Shown here: positions 4,304 to 54,800 of the stretch, piece after piece
Position numbering within the stretch: position 1 is the stretch's first letter
How the letters are laid out: each line of letters begins with the position of its first letter
Source of the DNA: Bacillota bacterium
Lineage (GTDB): Bacteria; Bacillota; SHA-98; UBA4971
Direction: 5' to 3'
Length of the DNA stretch: 64,000 nt
Assembly (NCBI GenBank): GCA_033809295.1
Contig: JAPXLY010000001.1
Span: 10,340 to 74,339, forward strand
Notes under the pieces: generated by a model
What the model was told of the DNA's origin: nothing
The model's database searches: none
The model's input: only the letters and a program-made list of their open reading frames with translations
Made by a program: the position numbers and the translations under genes

Positions 4304-5208
4304 ACTGTCTCTTGGTAGTCATATACTATTTTCGATATATGGGCAATTCTGGCAAAACCGTCATCAATATCGGATATGCCCTTAGATAGGACAACCAGGA
4401 TGTAAGGCTTATCTCGGAAGACTATGCCTACATCGTTGGCGATTCCTGAAACGTCGCCTTCCTTATGGGCCACAAGTACCTTATCCGGCAGATTTCCGGG
4501 AATCCCCACGTGATATATGGGATGCGACATGTCGTCTAAGAGTCGCAATCCCAAATCAGGATGGGCTTTGGAAAAGTCTATAACTGCCTCGACGTATGCG
4601 CCCATATCCCTGGCGCATGTAATGTTTCTGCCCTCAGGGAATACGATTTTGCCGCCGAGGTCTTCCATGAAATCGACGATGTTTTCCCTACCGAGATGAC
4701 GTGTGAGCATCCTATAGGCGATGTTGTCGCTTATTGTTATTGCCAGGTTAGCCAACACGCGCAAGGAAAACATATCCCCGTCCCTTGCTGTAAACTGCAG
4801 TATCCCGGCGCCATCCTGCCAATCGGTACTGCTGTTGTATGCGACCCTGTCATTCCAATCCAATCTGCCTTCGGCTACGAGAGTATTAAGATATAGCACG
4901 ACAGGGAGTTTAACGGTGCTGGCAGCAGTAATAGGTTCATCTTCGTTTATGCCGAAAGACTCGCCTGACTCAATATCTTTAAAGAATATGCCGTAAGTCG
5001 CGTCGTTCCACTCTTCGAGCGCACTTTCAAGCTCGCCTTTGAGCGCTGCATAATTCGAAGGTGCTTCTCGTGATGCGGCGCTTGCTGTGGCATTGGAAGA
5101 ACGCAGCCACTGTGTGCTGCCTCTCAAATCCCTACACATAACTTGCGCTGAGGCCAGCGCCAGAATTACCAGGCCTATGAGCACGAATCTCCGCTTCATG
5201 CGTGTCAC
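4300..5208 (-). CDS. Class A beta-lactamase-like serine hydrolase, secreted
   Basis: Signal peptide. S-x-x-K motif (STVK), SDN motif (ISDNIAY), and KEG in place of the KTG triad. Confidence 0.6.
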   Translation of the reverse strand: MTRMKRRFVLIGLVILALASAQVMCRDLRGSTQWLRSSNATASAASREAPSNYAALKGELESALEEWNDATYGIFFKDIESGESFGINEDEPITAASTVKLPVVLYLNTLVAEGRLDWNDRVAYNSSTDWQDGAGILQFTARDGDMFSLRVLANLAITISDNIAYRMLTRHLGRENIVDFMEDLGGKIVFPEGRNITCARDMGAYVEAVIDFSKAHPDLGLRLLDDMSHPIYHVGIPGNLPDKVLVAHKEGDVSGIANDVGIVFRDKPYILVVLSKGISDIDDGFARIAHISKIVYDYQETV

Positions 5209-17128: not shown

Positions 17129-17188
17129 TGAAAGGGTGGCCGGCGATTGTTTTGTCAAGGCAACCCGCTTGGGGAGTCGTCCCCTTAG

Positions 17189-17391
17189 TGCAACACCTGC
17201 CTCAGAAAACGTACGTACCGTGCGGGCCCACCCAAGACGATCGGAAAACCGGCGGTAACTAATGAACGAGACCGTTGTTCTCTCCCACATTATGTTAACG
17301 CAGCTCGCTTGAATCGCAAAGACCGGTCGCCGTCTTCGGCGAAACTGGCAGCTACTGGAGAAGTTCAACGGTCTCATGGTGATCTACTTAG
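17189..17391. repeat. Mosaic dispersed intergenic repeat, copy A (modules M1 + M2 + M3, with TGCAACACC flank)
   Basis: Convergent nhaC/feoB gap. Shares 57-nt module M1, 108-nt module M2 and the 26-bp inverted-repeat end M3 with the copies at 21395-21501 and 36697-36917. Spurious ORF 17048-17377(-) translates it. Confidence 0.7.
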
Positions 17392-18794
17392 AGCCGGCCA
17401 CCCTGCAGAAGTGCATAGACTTGCGTTATCAGAAAGCATGCGCCTGTAGCGATGAGAAGAGGCATCAATGCAGCGAAGAGCGTCCATTTTACGTCGCGGG
17501 TCTCATGCCAAATCGTCCACAAGGTCGTGGCGCACGGATAGTGGAGGACTGAGAAAGCAATAAAGCACAGGGCGGTTCGAGAGGTCCACCCACATGACAT
17601 GAGAAGGCCTCGAAGAGCGTTCAGGCTGTTCATGTCTACCATGACCCCTCCCGATGAGTACCCCATAGTCAAGACGGGAAGGACTATTTCATTTGCCGGG
17701 AGCCCCAGAAGAAATGCAGTGAGGATGAAACCGTCAAGGCCGATGGCATTCCCAAGCGGAGTAAGGGCGTCTGCGAGACGGAGAAGGAGGCTCACTCCGT
17801 GGAGACGGGTGTTCGCCAAGACCCATGTGACCATCCCTGCAGGAGCTGCCACAGACGCTGCTCTGGTAAGGACAAATACAGTTTTGTCGAGGAATGATCG
17901 AACAAGGATCTTCATGATTTGAGGCGGTCTATATGGTGGTAGTTCAATGGCAAATGCAGAAGGCATGCCCCTTAAGATGGTCCTGGATAATGCATGTGAC
18001 ACAATGAATGTCACGATTACTCCGAGGAACACCGAAAACATTAGCCAGACAGTTGTTGCGCCCGCACCGGCCACTGATGAAATACCTGATCTTAAGAACA
18101 TCGAGGATACCAGAATTATCGCCGGGAACCTTCCGTTACACGGAACAAAAGTGTTGGTGAGAAGCGCGATCAGCCTTTCTCTCGGAGAATCAATGATCCT
18201 GCACGCTACTGCCCCCGCTGCATTACATCCGAATCCCATGCACATTGTTAAAGCCTGTTTGCCATGACTTCCTACGCGCTTGAAGAATGTATCCAAGTTA
18301 AAGGCTATTCTCGGCAAGTACCCCAGGTCTTCCAGCAAGGCAAAACACGGGAAGAAAATTGCTATCGGCGGGAGCATGACTGATACTACCCATGCAAGAC
18401 ACCTATATGCGCCGAATACTGTTATGCCGATGAACCATTCTTGGGCATTAAAATGCCTGAAAACGCTCACAAAGTAGTCTTCAACTGAAAACAGAAGTCT
18501 GAAAAGAAGCGAAGAAGGCCAATTTGCCCCGACGAGAGTAATCCAGAAAACAGCCACAAGCAGTAATAGCATGGACGGGTACCCGGTTATGGGAGACGTA
18601 AGTATATCATCCAGCGCCGACGTTAGATCTCTTTCGTATCCGCCATGATTGTGCACGTTTGCCTTGCAGATCTCCTCTGAAGTTCTGCTTAACGATTCCG
18701 CAATAACATCAGAGAGCTCGCTATCGGAAAATGATTGGGCTTCCTCGGCTATTCTCATCACGTCTCGTAGTGAAGAAGGCATCGAGCTTCTCAT
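17388..18794 (-). CDS. feoB: Ferrous iron transporter FeoB, membrane (C-terminal) part, as a separate ORF
   Basis: Typical FeoB Gate/TM domains. Start ATG overlaps the upstream stop as ATGA, with AGAGGGTGG 9 nt upstream. The ORF track extends the frame to 18938, but that N-terminal 48 aa is Arg-rich and non-homologous. Confidence 0.75.
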   Translation of the reverse strand: MRSSMPSSLRDVMRIAEEAQSFSDSELSDVIAESLSRTSEEICKANVHNHGGYERDLTSALDDILTSPITGYPSMLLLLVAVFWITLVGANWPSSLLFRLLFSVEDYFVSVFRHFNAQEWFIGITVFGAYRCLAWVVSVMLPPIAIFFPCFALLEDLGYLPRIAFNLDTFFKRVGSHGKQALTMCMGFGCNAAGAVACRIIDSPRERLIALLTNTFVPCNGRFPAIILVSSMFLRSGISSVAGAGATTVWLMFSVFLGVIVTFIVSHALSRTILRGMPSAFAIELPPYRPPQIMKILVRSFLDKTVFVLTRAASVAAPAGMVTWVLANTRLHGVSLLLRLADALTPLGNAIGLDGFILTAFLLGLPANEIVLPVLTMGYSSGGVMVDMNSLNALRGLLMSCGWTSRTALCFIAFSVLHYPCATTLWTIWHETRDVKWTLFAALMPLLIATGACFLITQVYALLQGGRL

Positions 18795-19939: not shown

Positions 19940-20099
19940 GATTTCACCTCATCCGCATGAAACACGTCTTTACATACTATGACTGAAAGACAGCAAGGGG
20001 TCACTTCAATACAATGTCAATAGAGTTAAATGCCAATAGAGTAATTGATTGACCGTTCGGGAAATGGTAAGATATAGATGTTCCACAATTGAATCCAAG

Positions 20100-20361
20100 A
20101 CCTGACAGGTGCCCTTTCAGGGAGAATAGGGAAGAGGAAGCAGGATATAACCTGTAATCCCGCGGTTCCCGCCACTGTATCCGGCGAGCGTCCTTTCATC
20201 TTGCCACTCAATATGGGGAAGGCTTAAGGACTTGCAATGACCCGGAAGCCAGGAGACCTGCCTGTCCAAGTTTGCTTGTTACGCCTTCGGTGAAAGGGGG
20301 TTGCAAGCCAAAAGTTTGTTTTGGCGATGTGCCCCGGTGGAAGGCCGGGGTACTTCTTTTT
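20100..20361 (+). promoter_or_regulatory. Cobalamin (B12) riboswitch with intrinsic terminator
   Basis: GCCACTG motif at 20171-20177. B12 box AAGCCAGGAGACCTGCC at 20245-20262. Terminator CCCCGGTGGAAGGCCGGGG plus T-run at 20332-20360. Confidence 0.75.
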
Positions 20362-20444: not shown

Positions 20445-21398
20445 GTGGATGTAAACCGATGTGTAGGCGGTTCCGATTACCGGAGGAGGCCTTCCCCCTT
20501 TTCGGAAAGGCTGGCCCTCGTCGTTACTATTTCGGTACTTGGCATCTTGATAATGGGAGGTCGTGCCAACGCTGTAACGCGTGACGAAGTCACCGTTATT
20601 GACGCGCTTGGCAGGGAGGTCAAAGTGGGATTGCCGGTTGAGGCCATTGTGTCAATTGCCCCGAGCAACACTGAGATTCTGTTTGCTTTGGGTCTCGGCG
20701 CGAAAGTGGTAGGTGTTACAGAGGCGTGTGATTATCCTCCGGATGCCAAATCAAAACCGAAAGTCGGTCAAGTGGAGATGAACATAGAAAAGATAGCAGA
20801 GATGTCACCTGACCTTGTGGTAGCAGTTGCAAGCATGCAATTGCCGGTTATTGAAACCCTTTCCAATCTGGGCATACCTGTCTTGGCCCTGGACCCAAAG
20901 AACCTTTCGGATGTCCTGGATAGCATAACTATAGTGGGCACAGCCACAGGGGCGGAGGAAGCCTCAAGATTGCTTGTCACGGGACTTGCCGGCCGGATTC
21001 AAGATATTCAACGAAAGGCACTTAAAGCCATAGCAGAAGAAGGCAGGCCCAGGGTTTTTGTGGAGATATGGGACGACCCGTTGATGACCGCAGGGCCGGG
21101 CACTTTCATTGACGAGCTCATTAGGATTGCAGGCGGAGAGAATATAGCAGGTGACGCAGGTATGGAATGGCCTGAGTTCAGCGTGGAGGTTGTCGTTGAG
21201 AGGGATCCCGACGTGATAATCACGGTATGGACGGAACCGGAAGACGTGCTTGCGAGACCTGCTTGGAACCGGATATCCGCTTGTAAGAAAGGCAGGATTC
21301 GAAAAGTGAATCCTGACATCCTGACTCGTCCCGGGCCCAGATTGGTTGAGGGCTTAGCCGAGCTCCTGGAGATTATGCACCCGGGTTCAATCGACTAA
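20445..21398 (+). CDS. btuF: Cobalamin/iron-siderophore ABC transporter periplasmic binding protein (BtuF-like)
   Basis: TroA-like fold with signal peptide. GTG start 7 nt after GGAGG. The ORF track start at 20301 lies inside the riboswitch. Confidence 0.75.
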   Translation: MDVNRCVGGSDYRRRPSPFSERLALVVTISVLGILIMGGRANAVTRDEVTVIDALGREVKVGLPVEAIVSIAPSNTEILFALGLGAKVVGVTEACDYPPDAKSKPKVGQVEMNIEKIAEMSPDLVVAVASMQLPVIETLSNLGIPVLALDPKNLSDVLDSITIVGTATGAEEASRLLVTGLAGRIQDIQRKALKAIAEEGRPRVFVEIWDDPLMTAGPGTFIDELIRIAGGENIAGDAGMEWPEFSVEVVVERDPDVIITVWTEPEDVLARPAWNRISACKKGRIRKVNPDILTRPGPRLVEGLAELLEIMHPGSID

Positions 21399-21501
21399 GA
21401 AGATCACCATAAGTGATCGCCGGTTTTAGAGAGTGTTTGTACCGTGCGGGGCCACCCAAGCCAATCGGAAAACCGGCGAAAACTAATGAGCTCATACTTA
21501 G
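21395..21501. repeat. Mosaic dispersed intergenic repeat, copy B (M3-like end + M1, no M2)
   Basis: Between btuF and btuC. CTAAGAAGATCACCAT overlaps the btuF stop. M1-like GTACCGTGCGGGGCCACCCAAGCCAATCGGAAAACCGGCGAAAACTAATGAG. Confidence 0.6.
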
Positions 21502-21560
21502 CATTCCTATGGAATGTGCCTTCCGGTACGGCACACCAACGAGAGGAGATCCGAAGACCC

Positions 21561-29379: not shown

Positions 29380-29456
29380 TGGTGCGCCTAGCAGGACTTG
29401 AACCTGCGCACCCGGCTCCGGAGGCCGGTGCTCTATCCCCTGAGCTATAGGCGCAC
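29380..29456 (-). tRNA. tRNA-Arg (anticodon CCG)
   Basis: 77-nt cloverleaf GTGCGCC…CTCCGGA anticodon loop…GGTTCAAGTCC…CGCACCA, with encoded CCA. Confidence 0.8.
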
Positions 29457-35770: not shown

Positions 35771-35814
35771 TCCGTTGCCCCTAAGGGATTGTCCCGAGTA
35801 TCGGAGGAGTTGGA

Positions 35815-36081
35815 TTGGCTGCCGAGGCGCAAAGGCCGGTGTCAGGGAACCGGCGGAAGTTCTCGGGAAGGTTTAGCAGGTTAAGCCCGCAGCAAGTTCT
35901 TGTAATAGGCTTCGCTGCTCTCATAGTTCCAGGTGGCGTGCTCCTCAGCCTCCCGGTAGCTTCTCGCAGTGGTGGCAGGCTTCCTTTTGAAGATGCGCTT
36001 TTTACATCTACATCGGCTGTGTGCGTAACCGGACTTGTAGTTGACTATGTTCAGCGGCCGTTTAGGCCCGCTTTACAGTAG
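35815..36081 (+). pseudogene. trkH: Truncated N-terminal fragment (88 codons) of a TrkH/KtrB K+ transporter
   Basis: …LSPQQVLVIGFAALIVPGGVLLSLPVAS…LFTSTSAVCVTGLVV matches the first TrkH/KtrB helix-pore region. Homology is lost and a stop appears about 80 codons in. Full length would be about 450 aa. Confidence 0.6.
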
Positions 36082-36231
36082 CTGCTGCAATTGCTCAGAA
36101 ACAGCATGTTGTGCAAGTGCGTTATCCCGAAGAAAAAGTCATGGTCGGATAAAAATCAGCATTCCGGCTTGGCGCGAGTCATCATAGTATATAAGCGATT
36201 CCGAATCTAGTCAGTGGGAGGGGGCAAGAGA

Positions 36232-36690
36232 ATGCTGCCGACTCCACGGAGATTCACGTTGGTTGCAGGAAGCGCAGAAGGGGATACGCAACTTACAGCA
36301 TTCGATAAGGCGTTGCTTGTGGCGGGCGTTGGTAATTTGAACCTTGTCAGGGTTTCCAGTATTCTTCCCCCCGGTGCTGAGTATTCGCAGCAAATTGATA
36401 TTCCACCCGGATTTCTCACGCCGATTGCATATGGGACTATCAGCAGCGAAGTTCCCGGCCTTGTTATCTCTGCTGCTATCGGCGTAGGCGTCATAACCGG
36501 AAGCTTCGGCGTGATCATGGAATTTACCGGGATATGCAGGAAAGCCGAGGCAGAGAAGAGGGTTGAGAAGATGGTGCGCGAAGCCCTGGCCATCCGTAAT
36601 GCCCATCCTGAGAGAATAATGGTGAAGGCCACGGAACACGTGGTAGAGAAAGTGGGGTGTTCATTTGCCGGCGCCGTCCTATGGTACTGA
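36232..36690 (+). CDS. pdaD: Pyruvoyl-dependent arginine decarboxylase (PdaD family)
   Basis: …LLVAGVGNLNLVRVSSILPPG… matches the pyruvoyl-ArgDC motif including the SS self-cleavage site. Size about 150 aa. RBS GGGAGGGGG before the ATG at 36232. Confidence 0.7.
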   Translation: MLPTPRRFTLVAGSAEGDTQLTAFDKALLVAGVGNLNLVRVSSILPPGAEYSQQIDIPPGFLTPIAYGTISSEVPGLVISAAIGVGVITGSFGVIMEFTGICRKAEAEKRVEKMVREALAIRNAHPERIMVKATEHVVEKVGCSFAGAVLWY

Positions 36691-36696
36691 GTATGG

Positions 36697-36917
36697 GTTC
36701 ATTAGTTTTCGCCGGTTTTCCGATTGTCTTGGGTGGCCTCGCACGGTACGTACGTTTCTCAGAGCTAGCGATTACTTGTGGCGAAGACCGTTCGACTTCT
36801 CCAGTAATCGCCAGTTTCGCCGAAGACGTCGGCCAGTTCTTGCGATTCGGGCGGGCTGTGTTAACATAATATGGGAGAGAACAACGGTCTCATGGCGATC
36901 TACTTAGATGCAACACC
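36697..36917. repeat. Mosaic dispersed intergenic repeat, copy C (M1 and M2 inverted relative to copy A, 29-nt insert, M3 end, TGCAACACC flank)
   Basis: Starts 7 nt after the pdaD stop. M1 and M2 are each the reverse complement of their copy-A counterparts, but in the same left-to-right order, with M3 unchanged at the right end. Spurious ORFs 36657-36907 and 36665-36907 translate it. Confidence 0.7.
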
Positions 36918-37036
36918 GGAGGAAACACCGGAGGAAATTGGTTGTCATTAGACATCGGTCACAGTTATAATGTATGATGGTAACCCGGGGCGTTCGGTAA
37001 TGCCCGGCTGCAACAGAGTATTTGGAGCTGCAATTT

Positions 37037-49394: not shown

Positions 49395-49706
49395 ATGGAG
49401 ACGATGACAGGGACGAGTAGGTTGCATCCCGGAGTTTCAGCGAACCGAGGGAGGTGTAAGTCGGGGCTCAGGAGCGCCGAAAATCACCCTGGAGTAGCCA
49501 CGCGAAATCAGAGACGGTACTTTGTGCCGGACGACGAGAGTAGACGTGGCCGGGCCCTCCCGATACAGAGGTATGGCATTTTGGACGCAGCATGGCTTAG
49601 GCTGGGTTTAATGTGTCTATGAGTGGGTTGCCAGAGGCAGCCAATTTGGGTGGTACCGCGAGAGTTGAGTCTCCCGTCCCGATTTCGGGGCGGGAGATTT
49701 TTGTAC
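49395..49706 (+). promoter_or_regulatory. T-box riboswitch leader (Ile-specific, putative) controlling ileS
   Basis: T-box sequence AATTTGGGTGGTACCGCG at 49643-49660. Terminator CTCCCGTCCC…GGGGCGGGAG plus T-run. Candidate AUC specifier in GAAAATCACC. Confidence 0.75.
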
Positions 49707-54451: not shown

Positions 54452-54800
54452 CTTTCAGGACAGCGAGCATCGAGTTCAGGACCTCGGGGCGCCGACGAGC
54501 ACAGGACCTCGGGATACCGCCGAGTCCACCGTCTTAGGGCGCTGACGAGTTCAGAGCCCCAGGACTGAGAGCCATCCAAGTGAGTTTGGCGGCCCCCTGC
54601 CGGCCGAGTGGCTTTCCCTCAGAGCCACTTAAGCCAATCTCGCAGCGGGCCGGTGAGCAAGTGGCTCTTCCCGAGAGCCACTCAAAGGGATCTTGGGGCC
54701 TTTCGGTAGTCGAGTGGCCTACCCAGTGAGCCATTCACCGGTATGCCGAGGCTTTCGCGCGGTCGGATGGCCCACCCAGTGAGCCATCCAGGGAGGCGAA
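54452..54800. repeat. Degenerate tandem repeat region: about 4 copies of a CAGGACCTCGGG-type unit, then 4-5 copies of a roughly 50-nt unit each holding an AGTGGC-N9-11-GAGCCACT hairpin
   Basis: Units read directly: GAGTGGCTTTCCCTCAGAGCCACTT, CAAGTGGCTCTTCCCGAGAGCCACTC, CGAGTGGCCTACCCAGTGAGCCATTC, GGATGGCCCACCCAGTGAGCCATCC. No plausible coding frame. Confidence 0.55.

Follow-up and report, generated by a model that had tools for sequence, protein, structure and literature searches.

How do two copies of a repeat come to carry the same two modules in the same order, with each module in one copy being the reverse complement of its counterpart in the other? The window analyzed here is a 64,000-nt stretch of contig JAPXLY010000001.1 from a member of the Bacillota, and repeat finding and BLAST identified three related repeat copies within it (A, ~17150-17391; B, 21395-21503; C, 36687-36907). 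The initial annotation of copy C proposed that its modules M1 and M2 had each been inverted in place by recombination at inverted repeats, and it compared the locus with invertible segments and with MITE-like elements that rearrange after insertion. We compared the three copies with one another, with related copies in metagenomes and other genomes, and with orthologous sites that lack the repeat. We conclude that copy C is most probably a composite of two nested non-autonomous transposable elements, in which one element (M2) lies within the end of a host element (E0).

Three repeat copies in the window and their relatives

BLAST bore out the relationship between copies A and C. Two blocks of C are reverse complements of blocks of A, 36697-36757 of 17207-17267 (61 nt, 92%) and 36785-36891 of 17268-17374 (107 nt, 86%, E=1e-21), and their left-to-right order is identical in A and C. 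A third match, between C 36882-36908 and A 17366-17392, is direct (27 nt, 96%). By the BLAST ends, the spacer between the two C blocks is 27 nt (36758-36784) and not the 29 nt first given. We also checked whether short palindromes that read alike on both strands could account for the similarity. They do not: only the reverse-complement alignments run the full length (scores of 51/61 for M1 and 77/108 for M2), whereas scores of direct and of self-reverse-complement alignments stay at 8-16, a level that shuffles also reach (shuffle maximum 14-15). The left flank of copy A, TGCAACACC, does change sides as had been noted (17189-17197 in A, 36909-36917 in C), but the M3 module, which had been said to move with it, lies to the right of M2 and in direct orientation in both copies.

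Searches of the window with nhmmer profiles revealed no further decayed copies, leaving a count of three E0 and two M2, and a BLAST search of plasmids and phages gave no match to copy C. E0, M2, and the composite at C are non-coding; their only open reading frames are spurious and differ between copies. The coordinates of the features are collected in Table 1. Elsewhere in the window we noted a tRNA-Arg(CCG) at 29380-29454, a T-box leader at 49395-49684 (101 bits) upstream of the gene for a 1066-aa class I tRNA synthetase, and a 25-nt tandem pair at 54471-54520.

Table 1. Coordinates of copies A, B, and C and of neighboring features in the window
Feature	Position	Strand	Remarks
Copy A: partial M4, positions 1-51, inverted	17150..17200	-	contains the TGCAACACC flank, which equals the M4 terminal repeat
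Copy A: E0 core (E0 positions 33-97)	17203..17267	+
Copy A: M2, alpha subfamily	17268..17375	+	flanks ATGAAC/ATGGTG mismatched; hybrid junction
Copy A: left-type outer E0 terminal repeat plus TA	17376..17390	-	overlaps feoB-like stop TAA (minus strand, 17388-17390)
Copy B: complete E0 without M2 or M4	21395..21503	+	between btuF and btuC; btuF stop TAA (21396-21398) in terminal CTAAG
trkH remnant	35815..36081	+	1039-bp internal deletion; junction 36040-36043, 4-bp overlap, no repeat
pdaD, pyruvoyl-dependent arginine decarboxylase, 152 aa	36232..36690	+	PF01862; homologues almost all 152 aa
Left copy of putative E0 TA target duplication, now TG	36688..36689		empty sites in L064-66, L104
E0 right-type terminal repeat, outer part	36690..36702	-	AGTATGGGTTCAT
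E0 core (M1)	36697..36757	-	reverse complement of the copy A core
E0 inner left arm (the former insert)	36758..36777	-	homologous to B 21411-21430
M2 target-site duplication, copy 1	36778..36783		GTGGCG; 5/6 match to 36892-36897
M2, 108 bp, beta subfamily	36784..36891	-	terminal repeats AAGACCGTTC (degenerate, + strand reading) and CAACGGTCTC
E0 left terminal repeat, outer part (M3)	36892..36904	-	first 6 nt, ATGGCG, are copy 2 of the M2 duplication
Right copy of putative E0 TA target duplication	36905..36906		empty-site comparison
TGCAACACCGG	36909..36919	+	at native spacer position (ATGAGAGTCCG in relatives); identical to M4 terminal repeat
12-bp tandem duplication, ACACCGGAGGAA x2	36913..36936	+	absent from relatives
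Promoter-like site of ABC-transporter operon, TTGTCA-18-TATAAT	36942..36971	+	downstream of element; conserved in relatives

Approximately 45 related copies, from metagenomes and from four related uncultured Bacillota MAGs, resolve the repeats into three nested MITE-like modules, which we term E0, M2, and M4. When metagenome contigs were scanned with a pattern of the conserved core, ten loci were returned, nine of which contain the repeat; the tenth (L013) is a 28-nt core match only. A scan of genome representatives with a pattern of the M2 ends found true copies in the MAGs UBA4981, UBA6811, AS08sgBPME_304, and AS23ysBPME_252, together with an M2-like element in a Symbiobacterium MAG and chance matches. 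The E0 core pattern had no matches among the GTDB representative genomes searched, which therefore do not include the source species. The table of M2 copies used below holds 33 entries, drawn from the window, the metagenome contigs, and the four related MAGs. By exact-protein look-ups, the organism of the window was found again in metagenomes, from anaerobic digesters among others, and in two MAGs, GCA_012512055.1 and GCA_036836215.1. Short-read contigs often terminate within these repeats (Logan/ENA contigs end at 36833-36940 and 17174-17320), and the nested repeats explain the assembly breaks of this organism at the short-read level.

Module boundaries, target duplications, and empty sites

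E0 is ~107 bp long, and its ends, which read CTAAGTAGATCRCCAT... and ...ATGAACTCATACTTAG, form imperfect terminal inverted repeats (CTAAGTAGATCRCCATAAGT compared with CTAAGTATGAGTTCATTAGT after reverse complementation). From left to right the element consists of the left end CTAAGTAGATCRCCAT, then AAGTAATCGCCGG, the core, CTAATGAAC, and the right end TCATACTTAG. What had been called M1 is the E0 core, M3 is the outer left repeat of E0, and the "insert" between the modules is its inner left arm. E0 is found alone (copy B, L008, and L009 contain neither M2 nor M4), with M2 in the left repeat, with M2 in the right repeat, or with M2 in both (L015, L027). Repeat finding gave an 80% match between B 21404-21501 and C 36687-36784, and the inner left arm that B and C share is absent from copy A because the left arm of A has been replaced by M4.

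The composite at C spans 215 bp (36690-36904) on the minus strand, and its reverse complement reads left end, M2, CGCCAC, inner arm, core, right end. This layout is the commonest one, being found in 10 of the 33 M2 copies (the others are at L006b, L012, L018, L020, L027, L045, L047a, L051, and L052).

The initial annotation placed copy C directly against the pdaD stop. In fact the stop codon (TGA, 36688-36690) lies within the terminal CTGAG of the element. The orthologous locus was compared in relatives that have no element after pdaD, whose PdaD proteins are 87-89% identical: the empty site reads TGGTAT TAG ATGAGAGTCCGGAGG in L064-66 and TGGTAT TAA ATGAGAG in L104, and the filled site in the window reads TGGTAC TG[AGTATGGG...ATCTACT]TA G ATGCAACACCGG, in which the last block begins ATG. 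Comparison of the filled and empty sites places the entry of E0 at the TA of the pdaD stop, probably with duplication of TA. The terminal CTGAG of E0 now supplies the pdaD stop, and PdaD keeps its usual 152 residues.

Three filled/empty comparisons, at TTAG, TTAA, and CTAG, fit a TA duplication by E0. The left junction of C counts against it, because one or two substitutions (TA to TG, and TAT to TAC) must then have followed the insertion. We considered a 4-bp YTAR duplication and rejected it, because CTAA at the left end and TTAG at the right end are not direct repeats. From these junction sequences, we infer that the target of E0 is YTAR with duplication of TA, and the insertion of E0 at pdaD would have used such a target, with the element's own end providing the stop codon. 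In its small size, lack of coding capacity, terminal inverted repeats, dispersed copies, and filled and empty sites, E0 has the properties of a MITE, and it also appears to duplicate TA. GCAT was seen next to three outer E0 ends (C, L015, and L038), where ~0.2 would be expected.

The association with stop codons extends beyond pdaD. At 53 of 63 E0 ends, the last flanking triplet is a stop triplet, mostly TAA; 18 of the 63 fall exactly where an open reading frame of 60 codons or more ends, all three window copies among them; and most of the 63 scored ends are preceded by CTAA. At L036 and L053, both ends of a single element abut convergent genes.

M2 is a 108-bp unit bounded by GAGACCGTTG and CAACGGTCTC, which are invariant in 28-31 of 31 copies and extend imperfectly to ~18 bp (consensus GAGACCGTTGnnyTyTCC). 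It is positioned at nucleotides 11-16 of the left or right repeat of E0, in either orientation (10 versus 7 copies at the left repeat and 3 versus 2 at the right, between identical flanks). Direct repeats of 6 bp flank M2, and they are perfect in 17 of the 33 copies and match at five of six positions in 4 more, whereas the chance expectation is 1 in 4096 per copy. The presence of its own 6-bp target-site duplications identifies M2 as a separate inserted unit. The duplicated sequences, CGCCAT, CACCAT, TACCAT, CACTAT, CGCCAC, CATCAT, or CACCAC in the left repeat and GTTCAT or ACGAAC in the right, vary in step with the local variant of the E0 repeat. This points to repeated independent insertions of M2, since drift after a single ancestral insertion could not give such a pattern. 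At least 11 independent insertions are implied by the different pairings of duplication sequence with orientation. At copy C, M2 would have inserted at nucleotides 11-16 of the left repeat with a duplication of CGCCAT, which on one side is now CGCCAC. For both elements, transposition was presumably catalyzed by DDE-type transposases supplied in trans.

With its size, terminal inverted repeats, target-site duplication, and dispersed copies, M2 too has the properties of a MITE. The M2 terminal repeats also enclose unrelated interiors of 107-167 nt (L035 3056-3162, L039 247-364, L049 4495-4602, and L027 5375-5541), and one of these four is from a Symbiobacterium MAG. Two of these elements lie outside E0 (L035, with CCTCAC, and L039, with GCGCAG/GTGCAG, matching at 5 of 6 positions), one lies beside an E0-like end (L049, GTTCAG), and the 167-nt element lies within the right terminal repeat of E0 (L027, GTTCAT). 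That the same ends with unrelated interiors also carry 6-bp duplications indicates that M2 is a MITE in its own right. A more specific proposal is that M2 is a site-specific "hyperparasite" whose transposase targets nucleotides 11-16 of the E0 terminal repeats, while E0 targets the TA of stop codons; we hold this proposal tentatively, at a little under an even chance. If it is true, it accounts for chimeric 140-bp solo elements with E0 outer ends, and E0 exchanges the stop codon at its target for its own TAA.

These solo elements were found at eight loci (L017, L019, L036, L037/L042, L044, L047 7013-7144, L053, and L055). They consist of M2 between two 16-nt E0 ends, lack the core, and are 140 bp in length. 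Judging from their structure, the solo chimeras probably arose by deletion between two M2 copies that occupied both repeats of one E0, and they may still be mobile through the E0 ends. Double occupancy of this kind is present at L015, where M2 is in both repeats, and at L027, where M2 is in one repeat and the 167-nt M2-type element is in the other. We also considered the converse scheme, in which the solo form came first and later received the E0 core. It was rejected, because it predicts no duplication around M2 and needs exact excision to explain the many M2-free E0 copies.

The third nested module, M4, lies within the E0 core in many copies and is bounded by GCCGGTGTTGCA and TGCAAtCACCGGC. 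It is ~105 bp long, with a short form of ~60 bp, and contains TTGACA and two GC hairpins. Copies are found at L015 469-573, L006 2020-2123, L010 280-384, and L027 5608-5710, and the window contains a partial copy (17150-17200). M4 occurs in both orientations, flanked by 26-32-bp direct repeats of the E0 core (CAGAAAgtGTACGTACCGTGCGGGG), which are far longer than a normal target duplication.

Copy A is atypical in that it is truncated and its M2 has mismatched flanks. ATGAAC is of the inner right-repeat type and ATGGTGATCTACTTAG is of the outer left-repeat type, and on its left side the copy ends within M4, next to the nhaC stop codon. From this arrangement, copy A is probably a recombinant, whose junction may have been produced by homologous recombination between M2 copies in the two ends of E0. 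The M2 units of A and C are only 86% identical because they belong to different subfamilies, alpha and beta. Of the two comparisons drawn in the initial annotation, the one with MITE-like elements that rearrange after insertion is upheld: copy A is hybrid and truncated, and solo derivatives exist.

In a sister species (L083), an unoccupied CTAG (CATACTAGAGCCGGCCACCCTGC) is located exactly at the position of A's right end, and L083 has an E0 composite of its own at the feoB stop, a site that is empty in L086. The C terminus of the feoB-like protein is altered in the window, reading ..LLQGGRL* as compared with ..LLGIA* and ..LLSGIT* in relatives (17388-17410; L083 5213, L086 4807). Copy A is flanked by a 12-bp inverted repeat, AGGGTGGCCGGC, and the feoB-like gene continues across one of its arms and into the TAA of the element. 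The composite in the nhaC-feoB spacer of L083 contains an extra insert of ~310 nt (4820-5128) with internal direct repeats, GAGCCATTCAGrGGGATCTGrGGGCTTC. Copy B lies within a btuF-btuC-btuD-like operon that is preceded by a cobalamin riboswitch (20090-20279, 89 bits).

A fixed arrangement at copy C and the alternative readings

The reading first proposed for copy C treats M1 and M2 as inverted-repeat-bounded segments that each turned over in place, whether as a programmed invertible segment or by inversion after insertion. M2 does have the boundaries that such a reading needs, namely a perfect 10-bp inverted repeat that reaches ~18 bp with imperfect positions. It is found both ways round between identical flanks, as is M4 between its own flanks, and in-place inversion would keep the 6-bp repeats that flank M2. 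However, inserting M2 the other way round and inverting it in place through its 10-bp repeats would leave the same sequence. The orientations of M2 therefore do not discriminate between the two, and inversion at a low rate may occur. Ten base pairs of homology 88 bp apart also make a poor substrate for RecA, and M1, as the E0 core, is not a separable segment.

C and A differ in which end of E0 carries M2. With respect to the core, M2 points the same way in the two copies, and no inversion is needed. The impression of modules inverted in place arose because C is on the opposite strand and has its M2 in the other terminal repeat of E0. With the layout of C also being the commonest one, the claim that M1 and M2 had inverted independently is not supported.

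We looked for two things expected of an invertible segment, a nearby recombinase and a second arrangement. The neighbors of copy C (FdhA, a 119-aa protein, the trkH remnant, pdaD, ABC transporters, and a sigma-54 activator) include no recombinase, and neither do the Pfam assignments of the flanking genes, which cover at least 8 kb to either side. Seven contigs from at least five projects span copy C, and all have one orientation; at the level of these assembled contigs, they contain single-base differences only and no second arrangement. Six contigs that span copy B likewise have one arrangement, and the single contig that spans copy A agrees with the window. These observations speak against the claim of an invertible segment, and we consider in-place inversion, programmed or not, very unlikely. 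The shuffling of modules is, in all likelihood, the product of nesting at either terminal repeat together with recombination between nested copies, and not of a DNA switch.

Less likely still is a mosaic of REP/BIME-like palindromes that resembles the BIMEs of E. coli and owes its spread to a RAYT (Y1) transposase. The mosaic of modules, with units in either orientation, and the intergenic position at the 3' ends of genes would be in keeping with this idea, and GTAG is present in the left-type end of E0 (GTAGATC), but the right-type end (GTATGAG) lacks it. With lengths of 107-108 bp and terminal inverted repeats, the units are unlike GC-rich palindromes of 20-40 nt, and the clear 6-bp duplications of M2 and the filled/empty TA pattern of E0 contradict the idea. 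No RAYT gene was found in the window or in any locus examined.

The least probable reading is that the repeat is a structured regulatory RNA (a small RNA, a riboswitch-like leader, or a terminator) duplicated at several operons: all three window copies directly follow stop codons and E0 alone folds better than shuffled sequences (z=-2.7), which its terminal repeats explain, but folding of the composite at C is at the level of shuffles (z=-0.35), there is no terminator-like site, copies face either way with respect to neighboring genes, and the consensus fold of 31 M2 copies consists only of the terminal-repeat stem, with negligible covariation (term -1.06). Rfam searches of the whole window at gathering thresholds found nothing on the repeats, and searches with C, A, and L015, the richest composite, at E<=1-10 gave only chance-level matches to atpB (E=1.3) and P17 (E=0.4).

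Two further observations count against the nested-MITE reading that we favor. First, searches of the window, the loci examined, and viral contigs turned up no autonomous insertion sequence bearing either set of terminal repeats. Within the loci examined, pairs of GAGACCGTTG at IS-like spacing were only chance pairs over parA/parB genes, and no solitary extended terminal repeats were present; 14 matches in viral contigs had no partner repeat and are at chance level. Second, the TGCAACACCGG sequence beside the right end of C is unaccounted for by two nested elements.

The initial annotation had also taken the neighborhood of copy C as a sign of local rearrangement. The trkH gene is indeed truncated, and relatives have intact TrkH proteins of 451-467 aa, but the remnant is on the other side of pdaD from the element, ~0.65 kb away. 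Its deletion (35802-36043 / 36040-36214, equivalent to L064 2770-3808) is clean, with no repeat at the junction. In comparison with L061, L063, L067, and L068, the window (36691-37021) lacks the agmatinase gene speB (288-300 aa), which some relatives have after pdaD and ahead of the ABC operon. It is also missing in the element-free relatives L064-66 and L104, which indicates that its loss does not depend on the insertion. We therefore rejected a link between the element and either the trkH deletion or the loss of speB.

Comparison with known repeats

The repeats are ordinary selfish DNA of a kind known in bacteria, and the MITE families to which they belong are previously undescribed. Our analysis documents these new families in an uncultured Bacillota lineage that is represented in anaerobic-digester and other metagenomes. 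By landing on stop codons, E0 rewrites the 3' ends of genes: the stops of pdaD and btuF are now supplied by the element, and the last residues of the feoB-like protein are altered. The findings offer testable, modest points about target choice by small mobile elements and imply no new regulatory mechanism. They also argue for caution, as module shuffling in such repeats should not be taken as phase variation.

TA ends and a length of ~107 bp are classic for bacterial MITEs such as RUP and Correia (PMC2229807). RUP, the repeat unit of pneumococcus, is a 107-bp MITE thought to be mobilized by IS630-Spn1, and it prefers to insert into mobile elements (PMC2229807). E0 is similar in its length, terminal inverted repeats, TA termini and target, intergenic location, and high copy number, a likeness of features for which no similarity in sequence is expected. 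RUP-like MITEs mobilized by IS630/Tc1-mariner elements insert at TA, often within CTAG, and duplicate it; E0 resembles them in what appears to be a TA duplication at TTAG, TTAA, and CTAG, although one junction needs substitutions. In contrast to RUP, no IS630-like partner with matching terminal repeats was found, the ends of E0 are CTAAG/CTTAG and lie exactly at the end of an open reading frame in 18 of 63 cases, and the preference for nesting belongs to M2 rather than to the TA-type element.

The Correia (NEMIS) elements of Neisseria are TA-flanked MITEs with short and long forms of 107 and 155 bp, which differ by an internal block of ~50 bp (PMC2229807). The two forms parallel E0 with and without internal modules. 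In the uncultured Bacillota studied here, however, the extra blocks have terminal repeats of their own and M2 has its own 6-bp duplication, and they are therefore separate nested transposons and not length variants of one element. The BOX elements of S. pneumoniae and the BIMEs of E. coli are also mosaic intergenic repeats in which a few types of module appear in variable combinations. BOX elements are tandem arrays (boxA, repeated boxB, and boxC) and BIMEs are clusters of REP units, and neither has a target-site duplication for each module, as M2 does.

IS1397 and ISKpn1 are insertion sequences that target REP/BIME repeats, and self-nesting of MITEs is well known in maize and rice. For REPs as targets of insertion sequences, reviews cite Tobes and Pareja 2006 (PMC3184786). 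The word "nested" is absent from the three reviews of prokaryotic small mobile repeats and MITEs consulted, as is any mention of a MITE nesting specifically in the terminal repeat of another MITE. The repeats described here share with IS1397, ISKpn1, and the nested MITEs of plants the repeated insertion at a fixed position within another short repeat. They differ from IS1397 and ISKpn1 in that both partners are non-autonomous elements of ~100 bp and in that insertion is into a terminal inverted repeat of the host MITE. This apparent site-specific targeting of the E0 terminal repeat by M2, together with the tendency of E0 to land on stop codons, is the most interesting feature that remains once the locus is read as nested MITEs.
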